NCBI GenBank assembly: GCA_003660905.1
Contig: QMVB01000001.1
Coordinates: forward strand, 1 to 51,584
Direction of reading: 5' to 3'
From: Candidatus Nanohalarchaeota archaeon
Lineage (GTDB): Archaea; EX4484-52
DNA: 51,584 bases
The notes beneath the pieces are model-generated. The model was not told the DNA's origin and made no database searches. It worked only from the letters and a program-made list of their open reading frames with translations. This document shows, piece by piece, positions 8,074-51,262 of this stretch. Positions within the stretch are counted from its first letter, which is position 1; every line of letters begins with the position of its first letter. The position numbers and the translations under genes were made by a program.

Positions 8074-8083
8074 TCATGCAAAT

Positions 8084-8476
8084 ATGGGAGATTGTATATT
8101 CTGTAAAGTTATTAAAAAGGAAATTCCTTCCTATATTATTTATGAAGATGAAAATTTCATCTCTTTCTTAGACATTAATCCAAAGGCATTCGGGCACTGC
8201 CTTGTTGTTCCAAAAGAGCATTACGACGATATTTACAGCTACAGGGAAAAAGCAGGCGCCAGCGTAATTGACGCAATAAGAACAGTATGCCTAATGATTA
8301 AAGAAAACATGAACTGCGCAGGACTGAATGTTGTCCAGAACAATGGCAGGATTGCAGGACAGCTGATAGAGCATATTCATTTTCACATAATCCCGCGCTT
8401 TGAAAAAGAAATAGGCGTAAACAAAAGAGATTTCAAGGCAGTTTTAAGGATGATAAAGGGAGAAAGTAAAGCGTAA
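8084..8476 (+). CDS. HIT-family (histidine triad) nucleotide hydrolase
   Basis: MGDCIFCKVIKKEIP start typical of the HIT family, and the HIHFHIIPR histidine triad. The track ORF beginning at 7985 overlaps the zinc-ribbon gene and is probably over-extended. Confidence 0.85.
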   Translation: MGDCIFCKVIKKEIPSYIIYEDENFISFLDINPKAFGHCLVVPKEHYDDIYSYREKAGASVIDAIRTVCLMIKENMNCAGLNVVQNNGRIAGQLIEHIHFHIIPRFEKEIGVNKRDFKAVLRMIKGESKA

Positions 8477-13129: not shown

Positions 13130-14437
13130 ATGTTAAACAATAACTACAATGAAAAAGGCAATTACATATATCGGGTTAAACGTGAAGATTCTGATTTGGA
13201 CTCTTTTTTGAACCTGCTCTATGATGACCGACTCGAGGAAATAATGTACATCGGGGAGAAAAAAACAGTGAAAGTGTTTCACAGAGAGTATGGAATGTGC
13301 GAAACAGACATGAAGATGAGCAAAAAAAGCGCAAATTCCCTGATCGAGCAGGTACTAAACTCCTCTCCTGATATAGATGGCTCGGGAAAAATCATAAATT
13401 CGTCTCTTGCAGATGGCTCCCGCATAAACATCGTAAGAGGAGAAATTGTGGATGACGGACCTGTCATTACAATAAGAAAATTCAAAAAAGATCCAATCAC
13501 AATCATTGATCTCATAAGAAACAAAACAATGACTGTTGAATTTGCAGCATACATGTGGATGTGCATCGAAGGACTTAATGCAAACCCGGCAAATATTATT
13601 TTCTGCGGAGGCACAAGCAGCGGAAAAACTACAACCCTGAACGCATTCAGCGTTTTCATTCCAAAAAAATCAAGAATAATCACAATTGAAGACTGCTTTG
13701 AACTGCGTCTGCCGCACAGCCATGTAGTCGCCCTTGAATCAACAAATGACGTTTCAATGCAAAATCTGCTAAAAACAACACTTAGAATGAGACCAAACCG
13801 GATACTTATAGGAGAAGTAAGGGACAAGGAGGCCCAGGATTTATTCACTGCAATGAATATAGGATACGGTGGATGCATGGGAACGATTCATTCAAATTCA
13901 ACAAGGGAAACAATTACGCGGGTAACGAACAAGCCGATGGAGGTCCCTATAATTCTGATAAGAAACCTGGATTTGATTGTAATGCAGAAGAAAAAAATCA
14001 TAGATGGAAAAGCCCAGAGGTATGTGAATGAAGTCAGTGAAATCAGCGGAAGCGAAGGAGACAATCCCCTGCTGAATACGGTTTTTTCCTACAATGAAAG
14101 GACAAATGTGCTTGAGCGGACAAATGTACCGAGCAGGACAAGGGCAAAAATAGTCAATGATTCAGGAATCAGCATCGCAAGATTCGAGAACATACTTGCC
14201 GCAAGAAAAAAAATACTCTCTGCGCTGGCAGAGAGAAGCGAAAAGTACAGAAATATTGAACTGCTGGATATTCTTGACCAGCAGAGCACAATTACAAGAG
14301 AGCAGGCAACAGATGAGCCAGTATATGAAAGCAATCCATATAAAAATAATAATACTGCTAAAATTGATGAAAAGAGCAAGGAAAACGAAAGCCTTTTTGG
14401 AAAAATGAGCAGTTTTTTTGAGGAAAAAATGTTTTAG
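13130..14437 (+). CDS. Type II/IV secretion family ATPase (FlaI/VirB11/PilB-like)
   Basis: 435 aa. Walker A GGTSSGKTTTLNA, Asp box ITIEDCFEL, Walker B RPNRILIGEVRDKEA, His box GTIHSNS. Has a low-complexity acidic C-terminal tail. Confidence 0.85.
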   Translation: MLNNNYNEKGNYIYRVKREDSDLDSFLNLLYDDRLEEIMYIGEKKTVKVFHREYGMCETDMKMSKKSANSLIEQVLNSSPDIDGSGKIINSSLADGSRINIVRGEIVDDGPVITIRKFKKDPITIIDLIRNKTMTVEFAAYMWMCIEGLNANPANIIFCGGTSSGKTTTLNAFSVFIPKKSRIITIEDCFELRLPHSHVVALESTNDVSMQNLLKTTLRMRPNRILIGEVRDKEAQDLFTAMNIGYGGCMGTIHSNSTRETITRVTNKPMEVPIILIRNLDLIVMQKKKIIDGKAQRYVNEVSEISGSEGDNPLLNTVFSYNERTNVLERTNVPSRTRAKIVNDSGISIARFENILAARKKILSALAERSEKYRNIELLDILDQQSTITREQATDEPVYESNPYKNNNTAKIDEKSKENESLFGKMSSFFEEKMF

Positions 14438-17417: not shown

Positions 17418-20400
17418 TTATTCATTTTCAACTTTTTCTAATTCACGCAAAAGGGCATCTACATTCTCATCAAGCTTCCTGATTTTGTGCATTATTGCAT
17501 CTTTTAATGCAGACATATCTTCAGGACTGCCTACAGCCAAATTCTCTTTAAACCTTCCATATTCGTCCAGCATATCTCCTTCAATCCCAAATTCTTTCTC
17601 AAATTTAGCAAATCTGCTTTTCTTTTTCCACCAGTGTTTTTTTTCCTTAGCCCTTTTCCGGTATTGACGGTATATATCTTTAACGAGCGAGATATCTCCT
17701 GTTTTCTTTAGTCTTTTAATTGACTCTTCCCTTGTTTCCTCATTAGGGTCAAAAAGAGAGCCAAAAACAAGATGATTTACATCTTTTTTAAAAAGAGCGC
17801 GCTCTTTCCTGTCTTTTTCTATAACTCCTATTCGTGAAATTAATCCTTCAGCATTCCATCGGCTTTTCCTGTCTTTGAGCAGTTCATGCGCTCTGTTGTA
17901 AATAAATGTTTTAATTTCCTTCGAACTTCTTGAATATATATCTTCAAGAAGATTTACAGCGCCGTTTCCGGCAGCTATATCTGAAAACAACTCAAGCAGT
18001 TTTTCTGCAATATGCTGTTTTAATTCTTCTGAACTTTCGTTGTATAAGTTATTGAGTGAAGTTTCAGCATTCCATTGAACATTCCTGTCTTTGAGCAGTT
18101 CAAGCAATTCTTCAATGATATGCTTTTTATCATTTTCTGTTCCTTCCCTGTATTTTTGCTCAATTTTTTCTTCGGCATCCCACTGGGCGTCTCTGTCTTT
18201 AAATAATTCAATTAAATGGTTGATGGTTTCTTTTCCTGTATAAGGAGTGCCTTTTATTTTGTGCTCTTTTTTCTCTTTATTTTGTAAAAACATATCATAT
18301 ATTCCATAAATCTCCATTGCCTTTCTCTCAAATGTGTTCGGAGCAATGTCATTCTCTGCCAGCCAGTTAGCATCATGAATTATTTCATCGCGATTTCTGT
18401 ATTCTCCCAGTGCAATTTCCTTTATTCTATCGCCGGTAGTTCCTGCATTGCCGTACCCTACAGCTCGCAGGTTCATACAGTATTTGTTTAGTATCCACTG
18501 GTATTGATCTCCCTCTTTTTTAATTTCATCACTTATTTTTATTACACTTTTAATATCAGAGATGTCTATCCTGTCCGGGCTGTCAAGTATCTTTTTGACA
18601 CGATTATTTAATTCTTTGAGTTTTTTGTCAATAGCAAAAAGAGGCATGCATTCTTCATTAGACAGACCATGAAAGGGAATCTTGCTGTATTTTTTCATCA
18701 TCCAAAAAAGAGATTTCGCTATTTTGCCTTCTGTCTTTTCTTTTTCCAGTACAGACTCTTTTAACTTTGGCTCTTCCATAAGATCAAAAGAAGTTCTGAC
18801 ATTAGTTAATTTGGCTCCGAAACCGCCGAAAAAATAATGGCTTAATTCATCAATCTTTTGCTCAAGAAATTTTTTGCGATTGTCAGGCATTCTTTCAGCT
18901 CTTTTTTCAGCTGTTTCCATATGCTTTTCATGTATTTTTACATAAATGTCGTGATTTTCAATTTTATTCAACATTCTCTCAGCCATTCTGCGGCGATTAT
19001 CGTCCGCAGCATATCGGGCATTTGAGACAAGATGATTGATTGCCTCTTTTTCATACCCTGCTTCTTTCAATGAGCCATAAGCATTTTGCTGTGTTTTTTC
19101 ATTCCCGCTTCTCAAAGCTGATAGGGCGGCACTCCTATCTAATGGGTTTTTGATGTTGATTGTTTGAGCCTCTAATGTTCGATGGGTTTTTGCCTTATTT
19201 TTGTCGATATGGTCTCTGTTGTCGCCCTTGAATTTTTCCCACATTTCAGGGTTTTTCCTGATTTCCTTAAGATGCTCTTTTGCATAATCTCTTCTGTCTT
19301 TATGTTTAGAAAATAGGTTTCCTGTGATGCTCTTTAGAAAGGATTTTTTTTGATCTTCTGTTCCGTGCCCTAATAAAGATTCTCTTGCATTATTTCTTAC
19401 CTCTTTGTCTTCGTGTCTTAGGCCAGATAAAATATTGCCGATAAATGAGTGCTTTTTTATGCCTTCTATCGGCTTGTTTTTCAAAAATCCATGCGTGCGT
19501 TCTTTTTCTTCACTTAAAACTTCCCTGTATAATTCTCTTCCTTTTTCATCTCTTTTTGCCAGTTTTTTTAATTCTTCTTTTGCTTTATCTCTTGCAGCTT
19601 CATCGATATAGCCGTCCTCGGGAGACATTGCAGTTCTCATCATGCGCTCTGCCTGTGCTTTGTCGGCTATTGTTGGCGGCATTTCACTGGTTGTTGTGTA
19701 TGGGGTTTGACCGCCTGATTTAGGCGGTTTTTTGTTATTAAAATTTTTACTCAAAACACTATATGCTTCGCTAATCTCCTTGAATTTATCTTCGTTTGCA
19801 TGTTCAGATGTCGATCTATCAGGATGATATTTCATCGCCAGTTTCCTGTACGCTTTTTTTATTTCAGTTTCAGTGGCGTCTTTAGAAACACCAAGGGTGT
19901 CGTAATGATTCACTCCCTGATGAACAATTCTGTCTTTTCCTTTTTTCGCCTTTATTTTTTCTTCCCATATTGCATAATATTTTTCTCTTTTATCTTTGTA
20001 AGGAAGAGCCCTTAATATTGCTCCTATTACGTTAGCGGCCTCCTGTCGAACAGAATCTTCTTCTGCGTATACGGCTAAATCAATAAGATGAAGAACCACA
20101 TCTCTAAAAAACGGATGATTTTCAGGGAGGTTTTCAGGCAATTTTTCAGATATGCCCAAAAGTATATTTATATTTTTATCGCTAGATTTTTCATATGGCT
20201 TATAAATGGCTAGTTTAGCAATGTTAGAAATTCCATTAATTATATGCTTGTTTTGAAGTATTTCTACTGGAATTTTTTCAGGTATTGCTACGGTAAGATT
20301 TAGGATAGCAGATAATTCCATTTGATATCCTTCATTTAATTTTGCAGGCATTTGCTTCAATTCTTGCAGGATAGAGTTCATCACTGGTGTTCCTATATTA

Positions 20401-22343
20401 TGAAGCCCTTTATAAGCAGTTTTATAAATAACATCCTTTTCTGTCCTTAGAACTCTGAACAAATGCACAATATCTTTTTCTTCAAAATCTGTTTCTCCTC
20501 TTCTTAATCTTTCTACAATTTTAGGATAATCTTTTTTTGTTTCTTTTTCCCCAAATATTTTTTCAAACAAGGTTGATTTGCCTGTTTGTCCTTTCCCTGC
20601 AAAAGGAATATTATCAATTCCGCCGGGTTCTTTTCCAATCTCATCAATTCCTGCTTTTGCAAAAGCACTTTCTCCCATTTTTCCATAAGGTTTTTGAGTA
20701 TCTGCATGAAGGGGTTGTTCTGGTGGAGGAGAAGTTTGTCCGGTTGTTGTTCCTGTTCTATGAACTCCCTGACGTCCGGTCATGCGACTTCTGTTAATTT
20801 CTCTTTCCAGTTCCTCCAAAAGCCTAACCAAAGGACCTGGAGGTCTCTGGGCTTTTATTTCGCTTATGGCTCTGTTAAAAATGCTTCCATCAACCTGCAT
20901 TAGTAATTCTTTTGCTTTGTCCTTTGTGCTTATGCTTCCAGACCATGCAGCTGCCTTTATTATTCGCTCTATTGTTGCTATATCTTCAAAATTAAGATTC
21001 TTGTTTTGCATCTCTTCAAATGTGAATGCAGAAAGACCGCCGGAATATGGCTGTTTTTCTTTTTCAAATTGTTTTAATAATTCATTATAAGCAACATTTA
21101 TTTTCTTCATCCTTTCTTCTTCTTCAGGATTTCTGTCAGGATGATGTTCCATTGCCAATTTCCTGTATGCTTTTTTCATTTCTTTTTCAGTGGCGTTTGG
21201 AAATATACCAAGGGTTTTGTAATGGGCTTTGAGTTCTTGCGGGGGTGAAGGAGGAGTAGGATTCAGTATCTCCCAATATAAAGCTTGAATTAAAGAAAGT
21301 ATTTCATTTGTTGTTTTTGTTTGATAAAATAAAATTAGTTCAGATAATTTTCTGTAAAATTCCAGACAGGCATAAACCCCTTGCTCTTTTTTTATTTTAT
21401 TTCCAAGCATTATGCTTTTTTTGATTATTTCTTTTGTTCCTTTAATTCCAACATCCTTCTCTAATAGGTTATTTCGACAAGTACGAAGTATATTGTTTAT
21501 TGCAACATAAGTGTTTACATATTCCTCTTCTTCAAGGCCATCAACATCTGCACTTTTTATTGCCTGAACAATAATTTCGTTAAATTCAAATAAATATTGA
21601 GGGAACTCTTTTAGGCTGTCAAATATATGAATAATATTTGTAACAATATAGCCACTTCTTTGGATAGGAGACATTTTTTCTGCTTCTTCAATTACTTTTT
21701 CGTAAATATCTATAGCAGAGTTGTTTTGGTCTATTACTAGCCCTATTACTGAAACAACAAATCCCTCTTTAAGATTATAACTTTCCAATTTTTCCAGAAT
21801 ATATTTTTTTCTTCTCTCAAATGTTTTTTTCCCAGAATGCTTTTTCTTTTCTTTTCCTCCTCCCAATTCAAGCCTTGCGCTATTATCCGATAAAAATTCT
21901 TCTTGATTTCCCTTTATAGTCCTGCCAATATTTCCTGCTTTTCTTCCTAAATTCTCAAGTCCTGTTTTTGCCTTGGCAAAAACCCCTTTCGGCTTTGACG
22001 GCATTTCTCTTAAATTGTCGAATTTGTCAAAACCTGAGTCTCCCTGTGATTTCCCCCCTAATTCGAACCTGCTTTTGATTCCAAAATCAGGAATTACCCT
22101 TCCTGCTGTTCTTTTTGCCCTGTCAAAAACTCCTTTCGGCTCTATTATTCTATCAACAGCCCCGCAAAACTTTGCAATCTCTTTTTTCCCTAAATCATAA
22201 TCTCCATGCTCTGCTTTTTCCAGTCTTGCCTTTATGTTCTTTAGAAGTTTTATGTCTTTTCTCTCAAGTTCTTTTCCCCTTAAGTTTTCCAATTCAAGTT
22301 CCAGCCTTTTCAATTCAGAAATTTCTTCTTCTATATTTACCAT
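17418..22343 (-). CDS. Giant (1641 aa) protein with two J-domains and HEAT-like repeats
   Basis: J-domain 1 is [31 protein letters not shown], with HPD at nt 21135-21143. J-domain 2 is [31 protein letters not shown], with HPD at nt 19818-19826. The N-terminus is coiled-coil with a duplicated PKGVF..AK...ELGG segment. The C-terminus has repeated [15 protein letters not shown]-type HEAT-like units. Confidence 0.8.
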
Positions 22344-24247: not shown

Positions 24248-25408
24248 ATGGATGGAGATACCCAAACAATAGAATATTCCGATCAGGATGCAATTTCATT
24301 GGATGAAATGAGTTCGGAATACAAAATAAAAATTCTTGTTGAAGAAAACAAGATACTGAAGAGAAACCTGTTTGAAGCGCAAAATGAAATAAAGAAATAC
24401 AAGATTGTGCCGCATATTATGGCAAAAGTTGTGGATGTTGTTGATTCTGATAAAGCAATAATATTGCTGAACACAGGAAAATTTTATGTAAATATCTCAG
24501 AGGAACTGGTTGGGAAAATAAAAAGAGATGACGAGGTTTTTATCGAGCAAAAATCATTGACTGTCATTGGAAAGAGAGGAAAATCAAAGCATTTTGATGT
24601 AGAGAGATACATAATTTTTGAAAAGCCAAAGGTTTCCTGGAGCGAAATAGGAGGTTTGGATGAGGAAAAGAGAGATTTAAAGGAAGTAATTGAATTGCCT
24701 CTTCTTCGCCCGGACTTGTTTCGAAAAATAGGAATAACCCCTCCCAAGGGCGTTTTGCTCCATGGTCCTCCCGGGTGCGGAAAAACACTGCTTGCAAAGG
24801 CAGTCGCCCACCAGACAAATGCGAATTTTGTTGAGATTGTTGGCTCTGAACTTGTGCAGAAATACATAGGAGAAGGGACAAAATTTGTAAAATCCATATT
24901 CCAGATGGCAAGGGAAAAAGCCCCATGCATAATATTCATTGATGAAATAGATTCGATTGCATCAAAGAGAATTGAACTCGGGACAAGCGGAGAAAGAGAA
25001 GTTCAAAGGACATTTATGCAAATGCTTGCGGAAATTGACGGATTTAAGCCATTAGGAGATGTAAAGATAATCGGCGCGACAAACAGGATAGATATCCTCG
25101 ACAATGCGGTAATCCGCCCGGGAAGGCTCGACAGGCTCATTAAAATAGATTATCCTCATAAAAAAGAAAGGCTGCACATATTGAAGATCCATACAAAAAA
25201 AATGAAGCTTGAAGATAATGTATCACTGGAAAGTTTGGCTGTCAGGACAAAAAAATTGTCCGGGGCTCAAATAAAGACCCTCTTGGTGGAAGCAGGATAT
25301 TTTGCATTAAGAGAAGAGCGGTTTAAATTGAACAATAATGATTTAAACAGGGCATTGTCAAAAATAAAAGGACACGACAAGAAAAAGCAATTGGGCTTTT
25401 ATGCTTAA
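24248..25408 (+). CDS. pan: Proteasome-activating nucleotidase (AAA+ ATPase)
   Basis: 386 aa. N-terminal coiled coil, then an OB region, then an AAA module with GPPGCGKTLLAKAVA, IIFIDEIDS and PGRLDR. Confidence 0.9.
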   Translation: MDGDTQTIEYSDQDAISLDEMSSEYKIKILVEENKILKRNLFEAQNEIKKYKIVPHIMAKVVDVVDSDKAIILLNTGKFYVNISEELVGKIKRDDEVFIEQKSLTVIGKRGKSKHFDVERYIIFEKPKVSWSEIGGLDEEKRDLKEVIELPLLRPDLFRKIGITPPKGVLLHGPPGCGKTLLAKAVAHQTNANFVEIVGSELVQKYIGEGTKFVKSIFQMAREKAPCIIFIDEIDSIASKRIELGTSGEREVQRTFMQMLAEIDGFKPLGDVKIIGATNRIDILDNAVIRPGRLDRLIKIDYPHKKERLHILKIHTKKMKLEDNVSLESLAVRTKKLSGAQIKTLLVEAGYFALREERFKLNNNDLNRALSKIKGHDKKKQLGFYA

Positions 25409-26303
25409 TATGGCAGATTTAAAGGACCAGATAATTAATTTCACATACAACATCTATGGTAAATACATAGAAGAATATGTCTCTAAAAACAAGGATTTTG
25501 ACGAGTTAAAGAACAATATTAAAATATCAGGCATAAATCTGACCCTAACGGAATTTTTGTGCCTGACATTATTGGCTACGGCTCTGTGCTTCGTATTTAC
25601 GACACCGTTGGCAAGCATAGTTATTTACCTGATTACAGAAAACCTATTTTTTGCTTTGTTTTTGAGTGTATTTGTATCCTTCTTTTTTTCACTTATGATG
25701 ATGTTTGGGATTCTTTATATTCCTTATTTTATAAAAGGAGACAGAAACAAGAAAATAGACGATATCCTTCCGTTTGCACTTTCATATCTTTCTGTTATGG
25801 CAGGAGCCCATAACCCATCTGTTTCCATTTTCAAGACAATAGCTCAATTTAATGAATATGGGGAGGTATCTATCGAGGCAAAAAAAATAGTTGAGGAAGT
25901 GGAATTGATGGGCATTAATTTCAATGATGCGCTCATCCATGCAGCAGAACGCACCCCCTCAAAAACATTCAAGAATGTTTTATGGGGCATAAAATCAACA
26001 ATAGAATCCGGCGGAAACTTAAAGCAATTCCTGCGGGAGGATACTGCCGAAGCAATGAATTCCTATAAGATAAGGCTGTCCAAATACGAAGATCAGGTCA
26101 TGCTATTGACAGAGATATACCTCACTGCTGTTGTTGTTGGCTCCATATTCATAATTGTTCTGTCTGTAATATTCAGCGTTATAGGGGGGCTGAACAATGA
26201 TATGATAATAACCATGCAGTTGGTTGTGGTCATTCTGGTCCTTCCATTTTCCGCAGTTGGATTTTTGATGCTTGAAAGAGGAATGGCTCCTGCTCAAGTG
26301 TAG
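25401..26303 (+). CDS. TadC/FlaJ-like type IV pilus/archaellum platform protein (single T2SS-F domain)
   Basis: 300 aa. TM helices flank a soluble domain, DILPFALSYLSVMAGAHNPSVSIFKTIAQ...NDALIHAAERTPSKTFKNVLWGIKSTIESGGNLKQFL. Confidence 0.7.
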   Translation: MLNMADLKDQIINFTYNIYGKYIEEYVSKNKDFDELKNNIKISGINLTLTEFLCLTLLATALCFVFTTPLASIVIYLITENLFFALFLSVFVSFFFSLMMMFGILYIPYFIKGDRNKKIDDILPFALSYLSVMAGAHNPSVSIFKTIAQFNEYGEVSIEAKKIVEEVELMGINFNDALIHAAERTPSKTFKNVLWGIKSTIESGGNLKQFLREDTAEAMNSYKIRLSKYEDQVMLLTEIYLTAVVVGSIFIIVLSVIFSVIGGLNNDMIITMQLVVVILVLPFSAVGFLMLERGMAPAQV

Positions 26304-30020: not shown

Positions 30021-31031
30021 ATGAAAAAAGCAATTTTGTGGGAGAAAAAAAACAGTTTTATACAATGCCATCTGTGCCGCCACAGTTGCATGATTCCAGA
30101 GGGCAAAACAGGCATTTGCGGCGTTAGGATAAATAAAGAAGGAGCATTGTACAGCAAGGTTTGGGGAAAGACGACAGGCATTGGAATTGACCCTATAGAA
30201 AAAAAGCCGCTGTTTCATTTTTATCCCGGCTCGTCTGTATTATCCTTTGGAACCGTCGGATGCAACTTCAGATGCATGTTCTGCCAGAATTACACAACTT
30301 CGCAGGCGCCGAGAGAAGGCAGATATATTGAACAGGAGGACATAACGCCAGAGGAAATCATAGAACTTGCAAAAAAGCACGACTGTCAATCAATAGCTTA
30401 CACATACAACGAGCCGACAATATTTTTGGAGTATGCTCTTGACTGCATGAAGCTTGCTAAAAAGAACAATATAAAAAATATATTTGTAAGCAATGGTTAT
30501 TTTTCAAAACAAACGCTTGGATTGATTGAACCGTATCTGGATGCAGTCAACATTGACTTAAAATCATTCAACCCGGAGTTTTATTCAAAAATTGTCGGGG
30601 CAAAGCTGGAAGGAGTTCTGGACTCTCTAAAGCTGGTTGCAAAAACAAAAATATGGCTGGAAGTTACAACGCTTGTCATCCCGGGAAAGAATGACTCTCC
30701 GGAAGAGATGAAAAGCATTGCATCTTTTGTCAAAGAAGAATTAGGAGAAGATGTCCCATTTCACATATCTGCTTTTTTCCCGTGCTATAAGATGGCTGAT
30801 GTTCCCTCAACTTCGGCAGAAACATTGGTAAAAGCGAAAAAAATTGCTATTGATGAAGGTCTTAAATATGTTTATGTCGGCAATATTGATATAGAAAGAG
30901 CAGAAGATACCATTTGCCCAAGATGCAAAAAAACAGTGATAAAAAGAAGCAGGTATCTTATTGAAGAAAATAATGTTATTGGCTCAAAATGCAGGTTTTG
31001 CGGGGAGAAAATTAACGGTGTTTTTGAATGA
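30021..31031 (+). CDS. amrS: AmmeMemoRadiSam-type radical SAM enzyme
   Basis: 336 aa. Radical SAM CNFRCMFCQN, an N-terminal CHLCRHSC...GICGVR cluster and a C-terminal CPRC...CRFCG. Confidence 0.8.
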   Translation: MKKAILWEKKNSFIQCHLCRHSCMIPEGKTGICGVRINKEGALYSKVWGKTTGIGIDPIEKKPLFHFYPGSSVLSFGTVGCNFRCMFCQNYTTSQAPREGRYIEQEDITPEEIIELAKKHDCQSIAYTYNEPTIFLEYALDCMKLAKKNNIKNIFVSNGYFSKQTLGLIEPYLDAVNIDLKSFNPEFYSKIVGAKLEGVLDSLKLVAKTKIWLEVTTLVIPGKNDSPEEMKSIASFVKEELGEDVPFHISAFFPCYKMADVPSTSAETLVKAKKIAIDEGLKYVYVGNIDIERAEDTICPRCKKTVIKRSRYLIEENNVIGSKCRFCGEKINGVFE

Positions 31032-37419: not shown

Positions 37420-39699
37420 TTATATATTTATTTTGTTTCTCCCGACTGCCAAAGACAAAAACATCAGTCCTATTGACAAAAAGATTGTAGGGACTTCCGG
37501 GATTGCCAAAGGCAGATAATCTGTGTTGCTTCCCCCGCTGATATTATGCGGATAATCCACGAACCCATCTCCGTTACTGTCCGGTGTGTTGAAATCCGAG
37601 AAATAATTTCCTCCTATGTATGGACCACCGATTATATTTGTTTCGGTCTGGTTTGTAATATTCCAGTCATTGTTTCCATTGTCCCAAGCATTGTTTGTGT
37701 TGTCAAAATAATTGTTGTATATTAAATTTGGTACTTGCGCACCTGACTGGTATAAATAAATACCATATTCTAAATTGTTGACTATTGTCGAATTTTTTAT
37801 TGTATTTACATTAGCCTGAGATAAATATATTCCATAATTATTAGAAAGAGCAGTTATATTCAGAATTTTATTTAATCCAGAACGACGAAGATACACTCCT
37901 CTGTCCCAGTCTGTGACAATGCAGTTTTTTATCAGGGATGTTGTATTTGTTGACGAACCCCTTGATATACGGACTGCATAACTGGGCTCTAAAGAAATCC
38001 CGGCTATCTTATGGTTCCGGCAGTCCAAAGTTATGTTGTTTGCAGTTACATCCATGCATATTTCAGCACTTGAATCAAGAATATCTGCTGTCAAATAATA
38101 TGCCGCTCCTGTTTTATTCAATTCCCTACAGCCAGATATATAAAATACAGTTATATCAACATTTAGACTTCTTGTTTCAGAACTATTTGCAACACCTATC
38201 CTATTTTCCCAGCACTCTACATTCCATGAATAAGTTCCATCAGATAATTCATGACTCATTATTGTTGACGTGGCATTTATGGCATTTGTGGAATTTTCAA
38301 CAGTCCCGTTTATTACAAGATTGCATGTGGAATTTTCTGAAATATGGTTGTACACCGTAAAATTAAATATTGTCCTGTTGCTGTTTTCTGTGTGGTCGTT
38401 TGACGGGCTGTTTAAAACAATAATGGGATTTAGATTAGGGGGATTTACTGCATCTACATAATTAAAATAATCTGTTACATTGCATTCGTTGAAACCAATC
38501 TTAAAATATCCATCTCCATTCCACGAGGAACCCCAGCTGTTCTTTACAATCCAGTAGCTTGTTGTGTCGTTTCCTGTGTCGTTGTATCCTGTTAAAACAA
38601 CAGCATGATTCAAATCGCCCTCTTCATTGCAACGATAAATATCACCATCCCAATCATCACCATTGTCCATATCTATCGCGATTGGAAGAGGACCATAATA
38701 ACTTATCCAGTTTTTGAGTTCATCGTTTGAAAAATCAGAGTAGTAAACAGTATAATTACTGCCGGACAAATCCCATAATCTTGCGTTCCAGTCAGAACAC
38801 TTTCCATTGCAATTGCTGTTTGACTTATTATATGGAAAACAAAATTCATCGGAAATTCCATCCTCTTTTATATAATCAAGAGCCACAATTTGATTCCCGC
38901 CATCACAATCTCCACAGTAAGCGCAACAGTCAGAAACGAGATACTGTTCAGATAAATCCGGGTTTAATTGCGAATTGTTCTGGTCGATATTGTATTTTGC
39001 CTCTACTGCCCCGACAGCAGAAAAAGCCCAGCAACTTCCGCAACTTGCCTGATCCTTTACCGGTGTCATCCAGTTTTCATTATTGTAATTTCTCCAGTCA
39101 TAATAAGAATGGATGTTGCCATTGCCTACCACAAGAGAAGAAGCGCCAAAAGATTTGTCTTTGACTTTCTTTGCATTTGCTAAATCCGGTTTAAACGCAT
39201 AGCTTATTTTTTCATCAAGACCCATCATCTCTATCATAGGGACCATATTATTTTTATTTAAGAAACCAGAGCTTATCTTCGTAAAATCAACTTTGTTTTT
39301 TTTAGGTATGCAAATAGCATACTCTGAAGAATAAGAATTCCCTGTTTTTATTGTTTTGATATCGTATCCGTGCTTTGCGCAATAAGAGAATTCTTGCCCT
39401 GTCTTGCCATTGAGAAAATCCCATGCATTGAATTTTGCATTGTCTGAAATGACGCAAACTCCATCCTGACTGCCATCACTGCCAGTTGTTACTTCGTAAT
39501 TATAACCCATTTCTGTGCAATAAGCAGCAGAAGGATTGGATATTCCAAATGAAATTCCTGTCAAAATTATTATCATAAAACTTACTGCCAACCCGAACCA
39601 TAAATTTTTCAGGTGTCCTGAAGTATCACGTAAAAAAGAAAAAACTTTTTTTGTTTTTTCTGCATTGAATCCTGTATTTTTTACTTTTCCATTTTTCAT
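37420..39699 (-). CDS. Secreted multidomain papain-like (C1) cysteine protease
   Basis: 759 aa. Domain order: N-terminal TM/leader; DUF333-like module (YCTEMGYNYE...FSYCAKHGYD); C1 catalytic domain (QASCGSCWAFSAVGAVEAKY, LNHAVVLTGY, VKNSWGSSWNGDGYF); Ig-like region; parallel beta-helix repeats (NNYGIYLSQANVNTIKNSTIVNNLEYGIYLYQSG); C-terminal PEVPTIFLSIGLMFLSLAVGRNK tail. Confidence 0.85.
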   Translation of the reverse strand: MKNGKVKNTGFNAEKTKKVFSFLRDTSGHLKNLWFGLAVSFMIIILTGISFGISNPSAAYCTEMGYNYEVTTGSDGSQDGVCVISDNAKFNAWDFLNGKTGQEFSYCAKHGYDIKTIKTGNSYSSEYAICIPKKNKVDFTKISSGFLNKNNMVPMIEMMGLDEKISYAFKPDLANAKKVKDKSFGASSLVVGNGNIHSYYDWRNYNNENWMTPVKDQASCGSCWAFSAVGAVEAKYNIDQNNSQLNPDLSEQYLVSDCCAYCGDCDGGNQIVALDYIKEDGISDEFCFPYNKSNSNCNGKCSDWNARLWDLSGSNYTVYYSDFSNDELKNWISYYGPLPIAIDMDNGDDWDGDIYRCNEEGDLNHAVVLTGYNDTGNDTTSYWIVKNSWGSSWNGDGYFKIGFNECNVTDYFNYVDAVNPPNLNPIIVLNSPSNDHTENSNRTIFNFTVYNHISENSTCNLVINGTVENSTNAINATSTIMSHELSDGTYSWNVECWENRIGVANSSETRSLNVDITVFYISGCRELNKTGAAYYLTADILDSSAEICMDVTANNITLDCRNHKIAGISLEPSYAVRISRGSSTNTTSLIKNCIVTDWDRGVYLRRSGLNKILNITALSNNYGIYLSQANVNTIKNSTIVNNLEYGIYLYQSGAQVPNLIYNNYFDNTNNAWDNGNNDWNITNQTETNIIGGPYIGGNYFSDFNTPDSNGDGFVDYPHNISGGSNTDYLPLAIPEVPTIFLSIGLMFLSLAVGRNKINI

Positions 39700-40764: not shown

Positions 40765-40899
40765 ATAATTAGTTCAAAATCAATTTTATATACTTTTATT
40801 CCTTCTGGATAATGCCCCGCAGCTTGCTGCGAAAGACTATTATAGTTGAAATGTCTCCTAAAAAGCAACAGTTGAAACTTTATAAATTTACGAATGAAG

Positions 40900-40950
40900 A
40901 TACCCCACAGCTTACTGCAGAGTGAGCGAAGAGAACGGCAGGAGATTCAT
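40900..40950 (+). repeat. Hairpin repeat family, copy 3
   Basis: ATACCCCACAGCTTACTGCAGAGTGAGCGAAGAGAACGGCAGGAGATTCAT aligns along its whole length with copy 2. Confidence 0.55.
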
Positions 40951-41151
40951 TCTTTGGTTTGCGATAACTTTCAGCAACTTTGGCTGAACAGTAAACTTTA
41001 CCTTCACTGTTTTTTTGCAAATTATGAGAGATATATACATATATATAAGCAATATAACTGCATATACTTTTCGTTCAGAATTCGTTGCTACATAAACCGC
41101 TAAAAAATCAGAATTTTGGAGTTTTAAAGATTAAGCGTTAAAGTTGAGATT

Positions 41152-41174
41152 AGCGAGTGAACGAAGAAATTCAT
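41152..41174 (+). repeat. Hairpin repeat family, partial copy
   Basis: AGCGAGTGAACGAAGAAATTCAT matches the 3' half of copies 2 and 3. Confidence 0.4.
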
Positions 41175-41335
41175 CGAAACAATTGAATTTTATGAATTTC
41201 GATGTAAACAGTTAATAACATTAAAAAGCAAAGCAACACCCGTAAAACTTGATTTTTATGGTTTTTCTGCGCGTAAATTTTGCAAGGATGCAGAAAAATG
41301 TCGTAAGCGCAAAAACCACAATAAGCGCAGAAATA

Positions 41336-41407
41336 TGGTCCGGGTGAGAATTGAACTCACGATCTTCGCCATGTCAAGGCGACGTCATACCACTAGACCA
41401 CCGGACC
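41336..41407 (-). tRNA. tRNA-Val (anticodon GAC)
   Basis: The reverse complement is GGTCCGGTGGTCTAGTGGTATGACGTCGCCTTGACATGGCGAAGATCGTGAGTTCAATTCTCACCCGGACCA. Acceptor GGTCCGG/CCGGACC, anticodon stem TCGCC/GGCGA with loop TTGACAT, T arm GTGAG-TTCAATT-CTCAC. Confidence 0.9.
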
Positions 41408-41748
41408 TAATAAGAATCCTTGCATTTGCAGCAGCATTTATCTGGAGTTGCTGTTGCATCCTCAACACAATCGGTTGTGTCGTGTATGTAATCATCACCA
41501 CAATCATCCTGATTACATACACCATCCGCATCTGCTGGCGTTGCAGCTTTACTACTTACAAGAAACGCTTTATTCCCATGAATTGTCTTGCACATAGTAA
41601 CCGAAATAGTATCCCCTGATTCTTTTTCTGTCGGCTGAAGAATACTTTCATTTGTCCCAAGCAGTCTTTCAGAAAATACAAATATTAGTGCAAATGCAAT
41701 AATCAGTGCGACCATTATTGCAACGACAATCTTTACTCCTTCTCTCAT
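41407..41748 (-). CDS. Small N-terminally anchored Cys-rich protein, C-terminal CCCKC (paralog 3)
   Basis: 113 aa. Starts MREGVKIVVAIMVALIIAFALIFVF. Has 8 Cys in the pattern C-x24-C-x4-C-x10-C-x10-CCCKC. Its stop codon overlaps the 5' base of tRNA-Val. Confidence 0.7.
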   Translation of the reverse strand: MREGVKIVVAIMVALIIAFALIFVFSERLLGTNESILQPTEKESGDTISVTMCKTIHGNKAFLVSSKAATPADADGVCNQDDCGDDYIHDTTDCVEDATATPDKCCCKCKDSY

Positions 41749-41777
41749 ATTATTATTTGACTAATTCATTTATATAT
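41749..41777 (-). promoter_or_regulatory. AT-rich TATA-like spacer upstream of Cys-rich paralog 3
   Basis: The minus-strand spacer reads ATATAAATGAATTAGTCAAATAATAAT directly before the ATG. A TATA-like box ~25 nt upstream implies a very short or absent leader. Confidence 0.35.
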
Positions 41778-42206
41778 TTATCCTCCGCATTTGCAGCAGC
41801 ATGTTGTTGTATCTGTTATGCTGCATCTTGCTAAAGGAACAACTGTATTTGGCAGGCAAACATGATTACAATTTGAACCAGAATTATCTTTTATCACGCA
41901 CCTTTTTACGCCAGGTGCATTGCTAGGACAGCAACAATCACTTCCACAGTCGCTATTAAGAGTACAAGTAGCAGTTACAGTTGGAGTATTTGCAGCGCAA
42001 ACACTTCCACAACTAAGCGAAACAGTGTAATACTCCCTCCCTGTCATTTTGCATTTAAGCCCCCTAAAACCGCTTGCAGAGTTCTCCTCTCGTTGCTTTG
42101 CTTTATCGTTTAAGTTCAATACCCTATCAGAGAGTATAAAAATCACTCCAAATGCAATAATCAATAAAACCAAGACAGTGACAACTATTTTCATTCCTTC
42201 TTCCAT
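41778..42206 (-). CDS. Small N-terminally anchored Cys-rich protein, doubled Cys domain, C-terminal CCCKCGG (paralog 2)
   Basis: 142 aa. Starts MEEGMKIVVTVLVLLIIAFGVIFIL. Has 16 Cys, including an internal CCC and the terminal CCCKCGG. Confidence 0.7.
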   Translation of the reverse strand: MEEGMKIVVTVLVLLIIAFGVIFILSDRVLNLNDKAKQREENSASGFRGLKCKMTGREYYTVSLSCGSVCAANTPTVTATCTLNSDCGSDCCCPSNAPGVKRCVIKDNSGSNCNHVCLPNTVVPLARCSITDTTTCCCKCGG

Positions 42207-42235
42207 ATAAGTTATAGTTTGCTAAGTATATATAT
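42207..42235 (-). promoter_or_regulatory. AT-rich TATA-like spacer upstream of Cys-rich paralog 2
   Basis: The minus-strand spacer reads ATATATATACTTAGCAAACTATAACTTAT directly before the ATG. Confidence 0.35.
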
Positions 42236-42559
42236 TTATCCACATTTACAGCAGCATGTTGGCGGCGCAGCAGTTTGATCAGCGTTCGGGTTGCATTCAT
42301 TATTATTTGTAGTTATATCCGGGTAGCAGTCCGATGAATCACAGGAACCAAAAACTGCAGATGTTTTGTCAACAAGATAATATATTCCCCCATGGCTTAT
42401 TTTGCACCATGTCGTGGAAATTTTATTTGACGATTGCTCATCTGTTTGCATCGCATTATCTTTTAATTTTGCAAAATTATTTGAAAATACAGTTATAATC
42501 GCCAGAGCAATAAAAAATAAAACCATTATAACAACTACCAGTTTCATTCCTTCTTCCAT
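42236..42559 (-). CDS. Small N-terminally anchored Cys-rich protein, C-terminal CCCKCG (paralog 1)
   Basis: 107 aa. Starts MEEGMKLVVVIMVLFFIALAIITVF. Has 8 Cys in the pattern C-x20-C-x4-C-x10-C-x12-CCCKC. Starts 6 nt after the uppS stop. Confidence 0.7.
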   Translation of the reverse strand: MEEGMKLVVVIMVLFFIALAIITVFSNNFAKLKDNAMQTDEQSSNKISTTWCKISHGGIYYLVDKTSAVFGSCDSSDCYPDITTNNNECNPNADQTAAPPTCCCKCG

Positions 42560-42565
42560 ACGATT

Positions 42566-43276
42566 TTATTCCCCTAAATTTTTTTCTGTATTTTCGTATT
42601 TTTTGATTGCATCAATCAGGTCCTGCTTTTGGAGTTGAGGCCATAATTTGTCAATAAAATATATTTCACTGTATGCGCAATGCCAGAGAAGAAAGTTGCT
42701 CAATCTCCTGTTGTATCCTGTCCGCAATATTATCTCCGGATAAGAGCTTTCCGGCAGATAAGTGTATTTTTTGACTGTATCTTCATCAATGTCCTCTTTT
42801 TTCAATTTGCCTGTCCGGGCATCATCTATCATCTGCCTAACAGCATCAACAAGCTCTCCCCTGCCGCTGTAATAGAATGCAATATTTACTGTAATTTTTT
42901 TGTAGTTTTTGGTTTTATCTTCAATTTTTTCTATTATTTTTTTTAATTCTTTTGAAATGATGCTTCTTCTTCCGATGAACCTGATTTTTACTTCATTTTC
43001 CTTAATTTTTTTGTTGGCAAGCAAATTAGTGAATGTCGTGCAGAATAATTTTTCAAGAATCTTTTTTTCCACAACAGAGCGGTTGCAGGCATTTTCAAGG
43101 GAGAAGGTATAGAGCGTGATTTCTTTTATGTTTTCCTCGCAACACCATTCAACAATATCATAGGCTTTTTGGGCGCCCTGTAGATACCCGTCATACAATT
43201 TTTTTGAATGATTTTTGGCATATCGCCTGTTTCCGTCCATTATGACGCCGATATGATTCACTTTTTTATCATCCAT
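42566..43276 (-). CDS. uppS: cis-Prenyltransferase (undecaprenyl/dehydrodolichyl diphosphate synthase)
   Basis: 236 aa. Has HIGVIMDGNRRYA and RTGYNRRLSNFLLWHCAYSEIYF. Confidence 0.9.
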   Translation of the reverse strand: MDDKKVNHIGVIMDGNRRYAKNHSKKLYDGYLQGAQKAYDIVEWCCEENIKEITLYTFSLENACNRSVVEKKILEKLFCTTFTNLLANKKIKENEVKIRFIGRRSIISKELKKIIEKIEDKTKNYKKITVNIAFYYSGRGELVDAVRQMIDDARTGKLKKEDIDEDTVKKYTYLPESSYPEIILRTGYNRRLSNFLLWHCAYSEIYFIDKLWPQLQKQDLIDAIKKYENTEKNLGE

Positions 43277-43277
43277 A

Positions 43278-44480
43278 TTAAATTAGATATTTGCTGAATT
43301 TTATAAGTTTTGGTATTTTCAAAAATATTTTTGAAATTTCAGTCAAATTGCCTTTTATTATGTTATCTATATCTCTATCTTTAAGTATATCCATTATTGT
43401 ATTTAAGTCATCGTCAGACATTTTATGAAAAATCTCTTTTATCCTGTTTACTTTCAAAAGTTCATTGCCTCTTTCATGCCACCATGTTTTATTGTATCTG
43501 TCAAGAAATTTGGCTGAATAGTCATTTGATATTTTTGCTTCATTGATTACATCTGCGGCTATTTTTGCAGCATAAGTCGCTTCATGCATTCCTCCTCCAT
43601 GCATGGGATGAACTTGCCTTGCAGCATCGCCGACTGCCAAAAAGCCATTTGCTGTCATTTTTCTTAAAAGACCGCCAACAGGAATTGCTCCGCCGTTTTC
43701 TTCCAGAACAGAACCGCATCTTAAATTGTTTTTTGTTCCAATCCATTGGTCAAGATAGTATTTTGCTGATTTTTCGCAATTTGAAAATATTCCAAGCCCG
43801 ACATTCGCTCTTTTCTCTCCTTTAGGGAATATCCATATGTATCCCCCTGGACAAATATCCCTTCCTGCATATAATTCCAGACGCTTTGAATCTTCCATTG
43901 TTATATTTTCCAACTCGTATTGATATCCGCTCATGACTTCATTTGGTTTAGGAACAGCTATATTTAGAACTTCTCTTGCAAATTTTGCTTCAACGCCTTC
44001 TGCGCTGACGACAATATCTGATTTTATTTTGTGTTTTTCTCCGTAATATTCTAATTCTACACCGCAGACAAAATCATTTTCTTTTATCATACCAATAACT
44101 TCGGCATTTGTTATTATTTTTGCTCCTGCGCGCGCAGCATTCCCAGCTAACTCTTTGTCGAATAATTTCCTCTCCAGGATATATCCTATTTCATTCTTTG
44201 CGGGAAGATAGATAGATTGTCCGCTGGGTCCATATAAAATAGAACCATTATATATTGTGTTTACGACGAACCTTTCCTTTCCAGTGAAGCCAAGCTGCTT
44301 CAGTTGAACTTCGCTGAGACCTTCAGCGCATCTTTTCGGAGCTCCGATTTCAGGCCTTTTTTCAATCATAAGAACATCAAGCCCTTTTTGAGCGCATAGT
44401 TGACCTAATCTTGAACCACCGGGACCAGCACCAATTATGATGACATCATATTTTTCTTTTACATTAAATGTGCTTAACAT
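43278..44480 (-). CDS. Geranylgeranyl reductase family flavoprotein
   Basis: 400 aa. Has YDVIIIGAGPGGSRLG, PKRCAEGL and VGDAARQVHPMHGGGM. Confidence 0.85.
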   Translation of the reverse strand: MLSTFNVKEKYDVIIIGAGPGGSRLGQLCAQKGLDVLMIEKRPEIGAPKRCAEGLSEVQLKQLGFTGKERFVVNTIYNGSILYGPSGQSIYLPAKNEIGYILERKLFDKELAGNAARAGAKIITNAEVIGMIKENDFVCGVELEYYGEKHKIKSDIVVSAEGVEAKFAREVLNIAVPKPNEVMSGYQYELENITMEDSKRLELYAGRDICPGGYIWIFPKGEKRANVGLGIFSNCEKSAKYYLDQWIGTKNNLRCGSVLEENGGAIPVGGLLRKMTANGFLAVGDAARQVHPMHGGGMHEATYAAKIAADVINEAKISNDYSAKFLDRYNKTWWHERGNELLKVNRIKEIFHKMSDDDLNTIMDILKDRDIDNIIKGNLTEISKIFLKIPKLIKFSKYLI

Positions 44481-44524: not shown

Positions 44525-45043
44525 TTGTTTTTGTTTGATTTAACAAATCTGGGAAATAATATGGTTTTTGAAAAAGAAATATGGGACAACTTTATGAGTA
44601 TAATATTAGGCGTTTTCTTTGCATTTTTATTCTACAATGCACTTGGTTTTGCGCTTGATACAAAAACGCCATTGGTGACAGTTGTTTCATGCTCAATGTA
44701 CCCGGAACTTAATGTGGGGGATTTGCTTCTGCTCAAGGGAGTAGAAGACATAAAAGATATACAAGCAGGGAAGGATGGAGATATTATTGTTTATTACCAG
44801 AAAAATTTCAATAAATTAATAGTCCATCGCGTTTGGGAGATAAATAACAATACAATAAGTACTTGGGGGGATAACAATTATGCAAAAGATTCATGGACAA
44901 CTTCATTTGATGAAATAAAAGGAAAATCGATTTTGAGAATCCCTTATCTGGGATACCCGAGAATATTGCTGTTTAATATTGCAACAGATAGGAAAACAGA
45001 AAAATGCCAGTTGCTTTACGATCATAGATTTATTGGTGAATAA
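44525..45043 (+). CDS. Signal peptidase I, archaeal/ER type (S26B)
   Basis: Catalytic Ser in VVSCSMYPEL, His in LIVHRV, and the WGDNN box. The likely start is the Met at 44561. Confidence 0.8.
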   Translation: MFLFDLTNLGNNMVFEKEIWDNFMSIILGVFFAFLFYNALGFALDTKTPLVTVVSCSMYPELNVGDLLLLKGVEDIKDIQAGKDGDIIVYYQKNFNKLIVHRVWEINNNTISTWGDNNYAKDSWTTSFDEIKGKSILRIPYLGYPRILLFNIATDRKTEKCQLLYDHRFIGE

Positions 45044-45044
45044 A

Positions 45045-45368
45045 ATGGAACTTTGCAAGAAATGTGGAAGTCTGATGGTACCCATCAGAAAAAAGAATGG
45101 ATTGTATTTTGTATGCAGAGTATGCAAGACAGAAAAAAAGGCAAATGGAAATAATAATATTCTAAAGGAAGTAATTCACAATGAAAAGCCAATCATTGCT
45201 GTGGTAGGAGATAGCACGGAGACGCTGCCGACCATTAAAAAAAAATGTGAAAAATGCGGAAACAATCTAGTATACTGGTGGAGCCAGCAAACACGCTCTT
45301 CAGACGAACCGGAAACGAGGTTCTACAGGTGCACAAAATGCAAGCAGACATGGAGAGAGTACAGTTGA
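45045..45368 (+). CDS. tfs: Transcription factor S / RNA polymerase subunit M
   Basis: 107 aa from MELCKKCGSLM. Has the N-terminal ribbon CKKCG...CRVC and the C-terminal TFIIS ribbon CEKCG...QTRSSDEPETRFYRCTKC. The track ORF beginning at 44979 overlaps the signal peptidase and is over-extended. Confidence 0.85.
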   Translation: MELCKKCGSLMVPIRKKNGLYFVCRVCKTEKKANGNNNILKEVIHNEKPIIAVVGDSTETLPTIKKKCEKCGNNLVYWWSQQTRSSDEPETRFYRCTKCKQTWREYS

Positions 45369-50407: not shown

Positions 50408-51262
50408 ATGAAAAAAAGCTATGCAATCTATGCTGCATTGATAATATTGATTTTAATTTCCGGATGCAACGAAAGCACTGTTGTGCAAACTCCGGGCGGT
50501 GTGGACATTGTGGATTTTTCACCACTTCCCGGGACAGTTTTGTCTGGGGAGGACGTAAAACTGATTTATGAAATCCAGAACAATGGGGATTATGATGCAG
50601 ATATATCATTGTACATTCAGCAAATTGATGATGGCGAATGGGGTTTGACAGATACTGACAGGGAAGTTCTTTCTCTTGCAAAAAAGCAGGATGCAGTTGA
50701 AGGAGGAAAAGAAATTGGTTTTTTCCAGTTGACGGCGCCGGAAATTGACAGAAACACGAAACAGACCTATGGTGCAGAACTTAAAATGTGCTATCCTTAT
50801 ACGACGAAGACAGTATTCCGGTACGAAATTATAAATTCATTTGAAAAGCAAAAGGAAATTGAGCGGGGGAAATACGCCAAGAAACTGCCTTTTTTCAAAA
50901 ATTCAATATCTCCCTTACTGGTTTATTCATTGACAAAAGAGCCGCTTTTCGCAGGAAATAACAAGGCAATAATTTCCTTTAAGGTAAAGAATGAAAAAAG
51001 AGGAATGCTTGTGGATTCAACCACATGCGAGCAGAATCCCGATGCGACAGATTTTAATGAATTTCCGTTTGACATAACATCAGCAGACAGCGACATTGCA
51101 ATAGATTGCGATGAAGAAAAGATAAGGCTGGTGGATGACAGCGCAATATTTTATTGCACTTTGACCGGGATATCAGGCAAAACTTCAGTTACCCTTACGC
51201 TCGAGAGCAATTATTGCTATTACCAGACAAAGGAGGCAAGGATTGTTGTCAGAGGAATTTGA
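50408..51262 (+). CDS. Putative lipobox-bearing secreted protein
   Basis: 284 aa. The leader MKKSYAIYAALIILILISGC ends in a lipobox-like SGC. Has a CARDB-like segment (LSGEDVKLIYEIQNNGDYDA). Confidence 0.55.
   Translation: MKKSYAIYAALIILILISGCNESTVVQTPGGVDIVDFSPLPGTVLSGEDVKLIYEIQNNGDYDADISLYIQQIDDGEWGLTDTDREVLSLAKKQDAVEGGKEIGFFQLTAPEIDRNTKQTYGAELKMCYPYTTKTVFRYEIINSFEKQKEIERGKYAKKLPFFKNSISPLLVYSLTKEPLFAGNNKAIISFKVKNEKRGMLVDSTTCEQNPDATDFNEFPFDITSADSDIAIDCDEEKIRLVDDSAIFYCTLTGISGKTSVTLTLESNYCYYQTKEARIVVRGI

Follow-up and report, generated by a model that had tools for sequence, protein, structure and literature searches.

Three small, cysteine-rich genes lie in tandem behind two genes of isoprenoid-lipid synthesis in a DPANN archaeon, and the locus raises the question of what kind of protein they encode and what purpose is served by the CCCKC motif found at the C-terminus of each product. 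The genes are located on contig QMVB01000001.1 (assembly GCA_003660905.1) of a metagenome-assembled genome (MAG) labelled 'Candidatus Nanohalarchaeota archaeon' by NCBI. The 51,584 nucleotides (nt) analyzed are referred to as the window, and the genes, in the order of their orientation, as paralogs 1, 2 and 3. A preliminary description of the locus had proposed disulfide-rich surface or pilin-like subunits, a poly-cysteine tail for lipid attachment, or a metal-binding tail. The first of these is favoured, based on an even cysteine number, coupled cysteine losses, a conserved hydrophobic domain (H-domain) with an invariant glycine (Gly4), and relatives in putative pilin-like gene clusters. The products are, with moderate probability, small surface proteins which are exported, anchored by a helix and stapled by disulfides.

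Architecture of the three proteins

As the preliminary description had it, the three genes are co-oriented tandem paralogs of 107, 142 and 113 amino acids (aa); they lie on the minus strand and their products show pairwise identities of 41-43%. Twenty-eight columns are invariant across the trio, including M1, E3, G4, K6, V8, V9 and CCCKC. The N-terminal module comprises residues 1-26, that is MxEGxK(I/L)VV (MEEGMKLVV in paralog 1) and a hydrophobic helix of ~19 residues which extends to an invariant Ser26. In all three proteins this is followed by a polar, acidic linker and by the cysteine scaffold with the terminal CCCKC, behind which stand one, two and four residues. The spacing between cysteines is 20-4-10-12-0-0-1 in the 107-aa protein and 24-4-10-10-0-0-1 in the 113-aa protein. 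Alignment and cysteine counts thus bore out the shared N-terminus, the single helix, the scaffold with its spacings, and a tail ending within four residues of the C-terminus.

The middle protein had been taken for a doubled domain. Its halves align as C-x3-C-x10-C-x7/9-CCC, and the doubling is regarded as real since just 7 of 2000 composition-preserving shuffles reached the score of this self-alignment; a matching doubled form with 14 cysteines (P0017) is encoded in the related MAG L009 (GCA_030632385.1). Cysteine makes up 7-11% of the three proteins and 0-4% of the other proteins of the window, except for a Zn-ribbon TFS-like open reading frame (ORF) at 44979-45368 (7.0%). In-frame stops upstream of paralogs 1-3 rule out longer N-terminal leaders. 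The genes are real, based on this cysteine content and on homologs in other MAGs at E = 1e-19 to 1e-27.

Extent of the family

Profile and structure searches matched no characterised family, in line with the earlier statement that the family could not be recognised. Against Pfam and NCBIfam the trio gave only sub-threshold matches, all on the helix (Orthoreo_P10, YxzE, OAD_gamma, Tetraspanin and Ecr), and a sequence profile search of the PDB gave no match below E = 9. Just six proteins outside the window were recovered by a word-indexed search of 5.8 billion proteins, while an exhaustive hidden Markov model search of 1.84 billion cluster representatives resulted in 15 matches at E <= 1e-3. A third homolog search, which included the distant subgroup, added only P0022 and the doubtful P0023. 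The matches are all small proteins, and the named ones derive from 'Aenigmarchaeota' or 'Nanohalarchaeota' MAGs. The family was absent from a scan of IMG/VR and from a scan of JGI metagenomes, and a literature search for CCCKC and for cysteine-rich surface proteins of DPANN archaea revealed nothing relevant. The subgroup of paralog 3 has the most homologs (P0004-6, P0009-11, P0013 and P0014); among GTDB species representatives this type is present in just two genomes. This is a genuine, previously undescribed and tiny family confined to one lineage. Its members end in CCCKC, CCCRC, CCCIC, CCCQC, CCKC (P0013) or KCKC (P0016).

Cysteine parity and the proposed disulfides

An even number of cysteines was found in 22 of 22 family sequences, with counts of 4, 6, 8, 14 or 16 (the four of P0022 were counted by hand). 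The number was altered several times independently within the family, and each time parity stayed even. In P0013 the first cysteine of the C-x4-C pair is gone together with one cysteine of the CCC run, and in P0016 two scattered cysteines are gone together with two of the run. Parity and coupled losses suggest that the domain is exported and disulfide-bonded, the tail being a putative hub of these bonds. Cysteines that are neighbours in sequence seldom bond to one another, so the simplest reading would be that each scattered cysteine pairs with one cysteine of the tail. Disulfide-rich domains are normally extracytoplasmic, from which we infer insertion with the N-terminus inside and the C-terminus outside the cell.

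In the arrangement that we favour, the module M-E-x-G-x-K with its ~19 hydrophobic residues would insert into the membrane and would remain after maturation, as a helix for anchoring or assembly. The acidic linker of ~25 residues would carry the ectodomain, which would be ~55 residues long and held by four disulfides; in the doubled paralog 2 it would have ~90 residues and eight disulfides. The first cysteine, the C-x4-C pair and the fourth cysteine would each be bonded to one cysteine of the CCCxC cluster, and the tail would staple the C-terminus to the core of the domain rather than act as a lipid-attachment or metal site.

Two AlphaFold2 (AF2) runs, based on alignments of 9 and 13 sequences, predicted an N-terminal helix (residues 2-56, or 2-37 plus 45-57) and, after it, three short strands, at a predicted local distance difference test score (pLDDT) of ~65. 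This picture of a long helix and short strands, low in confidence as it is, was counted in favour of an anchored surface protein, as was the signal peptidase I gene neighbouring the locus, together with a gene of the same size at the same place in the relatives L001 (GCA_030639115.1) and L009.

The N-terminal module and type IV pilins

The 16 core members show a mean pairwise identity of 56% over the N-terminal 26 residues, 29% over the linker and 22% at the non-cysteine positions of the ectodomain. Type IV pilins characteristically have a conserved helix on a variable head. In L001, paralogs 2 and 3 (8001-8090 vs 8359-8448) differ by only two synonymous changes over the first 87 nt, beyond which the divergence is sharp and replacements are numerous; this mosaic suggests gene conversion or an exchange of the N-terminal module.

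All 19 aligned sequences have Gly4, in agreement with the rule of G, A or S at position -1 before the hydrophobic domain. Residue -2 is E, D, K or R in 16 of 22 sequences (mostly Glu or Asp), the exceptions being F, Q, G and one start which is probably mis-called. For processing, archaeal prepilin peptidases require G, A or S at -1 together with a charge at -2; an acidic residue can serve there, such as the D of Haloferax PilA1-3 (PMC4371748). The six adhesion pilins of Haloferax volcanii (PilA1-6) share an almost identical H-domain (PMC4371748).

The trio resembles archaeal type IV pilins such as PilA1-6 in small size, in a short polar N-terminus with G or A just before a hydrophobic helix of ~20 residues, in a helix far better conserved than the C-terminal domain, and in the presence of several paralogs per genome. 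The acidic residue at -2 has its counterpart in the DAVS sequence of PilA1-3 (PMC4371748), and like pilA1-6, which lie away from pilB and pilC, the trio genes are not beside the genes of the machinery. Unlike type IV pilins, they have an acidic leader of only three residues, Lys or Glu at +2, and no match to a Pfam pilin model; and where those pilins have a beta-sandwich, the C-terminal domain here is predicted to be a tiny disulfide-knotted unit with a CCCxC tail.

The most distant matches (P0018, P0019, P0020 and P0022) have the helix and a CK motif in common with the trio and carry a different domain with 4-6 cysteines. Basic KKG or HKG leaders occur in P0018, P0020 and P0022 only, an example being MNKKG-MERGLEIVIA, and based on these leaders Met1 of the core family would align with the first residue after a canonical KKG site. 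P0018 is encoded on a 1.9-kb contig (L015) on which seven of eight genes start with M-x-KKG and then a hydrophobic stretch. P0019 is encoded in an 18-kb locus (L014) where at least nine genes, including that of a 1252-aa protein, start with (K/R)(G/A) and then a hydrophobic stretch; L014 is from a different organism, as its GC content of 50% indicates. As judged from their pattern, these N-termini are signatures of class III signal peptide gene clusters.

Considered in its own right, the region at 3056-11820 of L014 (Logan SRR22387949) shares with L015 (JGI 3300073970) a conserved cluster of many genes for proteins of 41-171 aa, plus the 1252-aa gene, with a GC content of ~44-50%; nearly all of these genes begin with (K/R)(G/A) and a hydrophobic helix, and no ATPase gene is located nearby. 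It may represent an undescribed pilin-like gene cluster.

Genes of the T2SSE and T2SSF families in the window (Table 1) show, by their family assignment, type IV pilus machinery in the organism. This pilus/archaellum-type machinery is split over two places, between which a PAP2 phosphatase gene lies on the opposite strand. When the 51 kb were searched with a loose class-III-like pattern, the trio was the sole match on real genes, two further rows falling inside the PAP2 ORF (11929-13074). DPANN genomes with pilus machinery yet without annotated pilins are a recognised gap (PMC9563170).

In this variant of the favoured explanation, the trio would be cut after Gly4, or would be 'leaderless', with Met1 in the position that follows the KKG site of the relatives, and the T2SSE/T2SSF machinery encoded in the genome would assemble the three paralogs into a structure for host contact. 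That the module is a type IV pilin-like H-domain and the trio the subunits of a pilus-like or oligomeric surface structure is proposed tentatively, as a possible but not a probable assignment.

Points against an exported or pilin-like protein

A number of observations weigh against the proposed surface protein, its pilin variant included. Export, disulfides and processing of the trio are predictions from sequence. The charges flanking the helix, as read from the sequences, give no clear topology signal, and the organism is from reducing hydrothermal sediment, a setting in which disulfides outside the cell call for an explanation. The two AF2 models have low confidence, and a Foldseek comparison with the PDB gave no match below E = 4.8.

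The remainder concern the pilin variant. The leader of the core family is just M-E-(E/D), acidic and not basic, so that it lacks the positive charge expected of such leaders. The hydrophobic run is 19 residues long but has an invariant Lys (Glu in distant members) at +2, and the FlaFind pattern would reject the leader with this Lys. The canonical KKA/RKG-type candidates in the relative L008 differ in look. No pilin N-terminal model matched the trio at E <= 1 in Pfam-A (24736 models), a scan which presumably included the archaeal models of this kind, Pilin_N and Class_IIIsignal. No A24 prepilin peptidase was identified among the window ORFs scanned, and the T2SSE/T2SSF genes, which have no pilin gene next to them, lie at a distance of 16-28 kb from the trio. 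As for the distant relatives, the link to the P0018-20 group rests mainly on the helix and the CK motif (E ~1e-5), none of the L014 cluster genes matched a Pfam domain, pilin included, and no T2SSE ATPase was found within 18 kb of P0019 in L014.

Secreted peptides and metal-binding tails

Among the rivals, the one which survives best holds that signal peptidase I cuts the proteins after Ser26 (x-F-S|E-R, the bar marking the cut) and frees a soluble, disulfide-knotted peptide of ~80 aa, which would be directed at the host or at competitors as effector, toxin or bacteriocin. Ser26 is nearly invariant in the family, with V, I or L at -3, and a signal peptidase I gene adjoins the operon. A conserved pre-region followed by a fast-diverging cysteine framework is also the pattern of conotoxin and defensin families, and two paralogs have weak, sub-threshold matches to the YxzE-like putative bacteriocin family (E 0.22-0.77). 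The likeness to conotoxins, defensins and fungal cysteine-rich effectors covers the conserved N-terminal targeting region, the fixed cysteine framework, the diverging residues between cysteines, and the occurrence as tandem gene families in organisms living on a host. These families, however, belong to another domain of life and have no sequence or fold relation to the trio, whose helix is anchor-like: the ~19-residue hydrophobic run reaches the site without a polar c-region or a helix breaker, and this segment is the best-conserved part of the protein, whereas signal peptides are normally the least conserved. The YxzE scores are 13 bits against a cutoff of 40, and no dedicated transporter or immunity gene is located nearby. 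Secretion as a free peptide is therefore considered rather unlikely.

Still less likely is a metal-binding tail, the third proposal of the preliminary description. The CCCxC motif, the scattered cysteines and His56 would hold Zn, Cu or Fe-S, either outside the cell or, if the N-terminus is out, in the cytoplasm. CKC and CC clusters are common in metal-thiolate proteins, His56 is kept in most members, the reducing habitat favours free thiols, and the flanking charges leave the topology unsettled. Against this, cysteine numbers of 6 and 14 cannot be divided by four and misfit four-ligand sets, whereas pairing is in better accord with the even parity and with the joint loss of scattered and tail cysteines; P0003, P0004, P0014 and P0015 are without His56, and no Zn-ribbon or ferredoxin model matches the trio. 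Unlike metallothioneins, the trio has a well lower cysteine density (7-11%), confined to the C-terminal half, and counts which are always even.

Linkage to uppS and GGR, and the lipidation proposal

The layout of the locus is summarised in Table 1.

Table 1. Features of the trio locus and of the pilus-type machinery in the window
Feature	Position	Strand	Remarks
Order of the trio locus		-	GGR, 1 nt, UppS, 6 nt, paralog 1, 29 nt, paralog 2, 29 nt, paralog 3, tRNA-Val(gac)
Paralog 1 (P0002; DRN66_00230)	42559..42236	-	107 aa, 8 Cys; CCCKC coded at 42242-42256
Paralog 2 (P0003; DRN66_00225)	42206..41778	-	142 aa, 16 Cys; internal CCC, terminal CCCKC at 41787-41801
Paralog 3 (P0001; DRN66_00220)	41748..41407	-	113 aa, 8 Cys; CCCKC at 41422-41436, then KDSY
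Spacer upstream of paralog 2	42207..42235	-	29 nt; TATA-like box AAATATATATA centred ~26 nt before ATG
Spacer upstream of paralog 3	41749..41777	-	29 nt; box AAATATATAAA ~26 nt before ATG
tRNA-Val(gac)	41336..41407	-	first base is the G (last base) of the paralog 3 TAG stop
UppS, cis-polyprenyl diphosphate synthase	42566..43276	-	PF01255 at 8.5e-65; TIGR00055
Geranylgeranyl reductase (GGR) family protein	43278..44480	-	PF22578; TIGR02032
Archaeal type I signal peptidase	44525..45043	+	TIGR02228, 108 bits vs cutoff 51.85; divergent from GGR
T2SSE-family (PilB/FlaI-like) ATPase	13130..14437	+	
T2SSF-family genes	11360-11953 and 25401-26303	+	

The gaps given earlier, of 6 nt between the uppS stop and the ATG of paralog 1 and of 1 nt between the GGR stop and the ATG of uppS, are correct, and paralog 1 is probably co-transcribed with uppS. 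This proximity had led to the proposal that the poly-cysteine tail is a covalent isoprenoid or acyl lipid site supplied by UppS and GGR, which we now regard as very improbable. In its specific form, equally improbable, the CCCxC tail would carry a polyprenyl or other isoprenoid lipid in thioether or thioester linkage on the outer membrane face, with the substrate coming from the co-transcribed UppS/GGR. In its favour, paralog 1 starts 6-9 nt past uppS in three genomes (the only family gene so tightly coupled), the tail is superficially like Rab CC/CXC motifs, and lipid-modified archaeal surface proteins exist. If true, the protein would be tethered by its tail as well as by its helix, and archaea would have a kind of S-prenylation so far not known from them.

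The preliminary description had asked whether the neighbourhood is conserved. The gene order signal peptidase I, GGR, UppS, three family genes and tRNA-Val recurs in L001/L002 (GCA_030639115.1 and GCA_023137195.1) and in L009, where UppS and GGR are ~66-73% identical to the copies in the window. The wider synteny is common as well, including a class I aminoacyl-tRNA synthetase and TFS, with UDP-glucose dehydrogenase in L001 and L009. Given this shared synteny and the similarity of UppS and GGR, the linkage amounts to conservation within one clade. It is missing in Aenigmarchaeota ex4484_52 (L006), in which a pair of family genes follows S-adenosylhomocysteine hydrolase (AdoHcyase), and in L008, in which a single family gene follows a thermosome gene; L006, L008, L014 and L015 show no isoprenoid-gene association. 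Outside the window, conservation of the uppS/GGR neighbourhood is thus restricted to L001/L002 and L009. As a side observation, the single GGR gene of the window corresponds to two tandem paralogs in L001.

Paralogs 2 and 3 had been credited with TATA-like spacers of their own, and this was upheld by the relatives. Both 29-nt spacers have the layout stop-ATATATA(T/A)A-~20 nt-ATG. A box ATAAATATATA(A/T)A stands ~26 nt before the ATG of paralog-3-type genes in four genomes (the window, L001, L009 and L008) and of paralog 2 in the window, and it is kept in L008 despite a different upstream gene. A distance of ~26 nt before the ATG is the expected place of an archaeal TATA box on a leaderless mRNA. 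We infer that the boxes are promoters for leaderless mRNAs of paralogs 2 and 3.

The lipidation proposal is weakened by the restriction of the uppS link to one clade with ~70% identical UppS and GGR, by the predicted and conserved promoters of paralogs 2 and 3, by the lack of a protein prenyltransferase (PF00432, PF01239) among the 44 main non-overlapping window ORFs scanned against Pfam, and by the even parity, which leaves no spare thiol. Furthermore, P0013 and P0016 are without the full CCCKC, and the distant homologs are not beside uppS/GGR, both of which the preliminary description had named as refuting evidence. Like eukaryotic CaaX and Rab CC/CXC proteins, the family has a cysteine cluster within a few residues of the C-terminus. 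Unlike them, its tail varies in sequence and is followed by 0-4 residues, the domain is probably outside the cell, and all cysteines are seemingly paired; the neighbouring UppS is a cis-prenyl chain elongator which yields free polyprenyl diphosphate and not a protein prenyltransferase. A connection with UppS through N-glycosylation was also considered and set aside, the trio having just 0-1 sequons per protein. The position behind uppS and GGR would reflect a local, lineage-specific cell-envelope neighbourhood rather than a biochemical dependence on polyprenyl lipids.

It is scarcely credible that the trio are small membrane subunits or regulators of a lipid or glycan-carrier enzyme complex (e.g. 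UppS partners) or, as a variant, precursors of ribosomally synthesised and post-translationally modified peptides: the tight coupling of paralog 1 to uppS and weak matches to the Ecr family of small regulatory membrane proteins (E 0.01-0.07) would fit the former, but distant members are unlinked to uppS and the Ecr matches span only the hydrophobic helix, below cutoff, while for the latter no gene of a radical-SAM enzyme or another maturase adjoins the trio (the nearest radical-SAM gene, at 30021-31031, is 10 kb off) and an N-terminal transmembrane helix is atypical, a soluble leader being expected.

The tRNA-Val junction

The array was found to end exactly at tRNA-Val, as described, the paralog 3 stop and the tRNA overlapping by one base. 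This adjacency extends more widely than the uppS link, with gaps of 1 nt in L001 (8664-8666), 0 nt in L009 (6780-6781) and 14 nt in L008 (6312-6327). Two arrangements would account for this: RNase P excises tRNA-Val from the mRNA, or the promoter of the tRNA is contained in the 3' end that codes for CCCKC. In the window and L009, GATAAATG, coding D-K-C, is present ~30 nt upstream of tRNA-Val. A foreign insertion at the tRNA was considered and set aside in view of uniform GC over 38-46 kb and stable synteny in three genomes.

Besides UppS and tRNA-Val, the other neighbour of the trio is an epimerase gene. Between it and tRNA-Val lies a conserved non-coding element of ~110 nt (window 41195-41312, plus strand), which is 78% identical to its counterpart in L009 (6997-7100), is also found in L001 (8837-8896), and had no match in Rfam. 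It contains a hairpin of the form U5-stem-A5 with compensatory changes at four pairs among the three sequences. The element is inverted relative to tRNA-Val in the window as compared with L001 and L009. In the relatives it is followed by tRNA-Glu, which is absent from the 570-nt gene-free stretch (40765-41335) of the window.

Other features of the window

The signal peptidase gene matched Pfam at E = 0.0015 only; its catalytic-serine motif is SCSM, where the usual archaeal motif is SGSM-like. The true start is probably the ATG at ~44561. A gene for 161-162 aa occupies the same divergent place in L001, L002 and L009; it is without a Pfam match and is presumably the signal peptidase ortholog, the N-termini having been compared by eye only.

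A full-length serpin (PF00079, 2.5e-129) is encoded at 2814-4052 on the plus strand and has a lipobox-like FLSGC start, and a 284-aa protein encoded at 50408-51262 (plus strand) has a lipobox-like LISGC start. In a 759-aa protein (37420-39699, minus strand), an N-terminal membrane segment precedes DUF333, a papain-family protease domain and a NosD beta-helix. Taken together, the three proteins look like a surface protease and inhibitor set. A 1641-aa protein (17418-22343, minus strand) contains an internal DnaJ domain (residues 812-867) and HEAT repeats; J-domain proteins of this length are unusual in archaea with small genomes. GrpE is encoded at 4687-5163.

Significance

The significance of these proteins is limited by the handful of MAGs in which they occur, by the sequence-based nature of the evidence, and by the fact that the lipidation proposal has lost its main support. 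DPANN archaea depend on physical contact with host cells, and many of them have type IV pilus machinery without pilins that can be recognised (PMC9563170). If the trio are indeed disulfide-stapled surface proteins, the CCCxC hub would be an unusual way to stabilise a very small ectodomain, and the three genes would be a concrete candidate for the missing pilus or surface subunits in an Aenigmarchaeota-like lineage.

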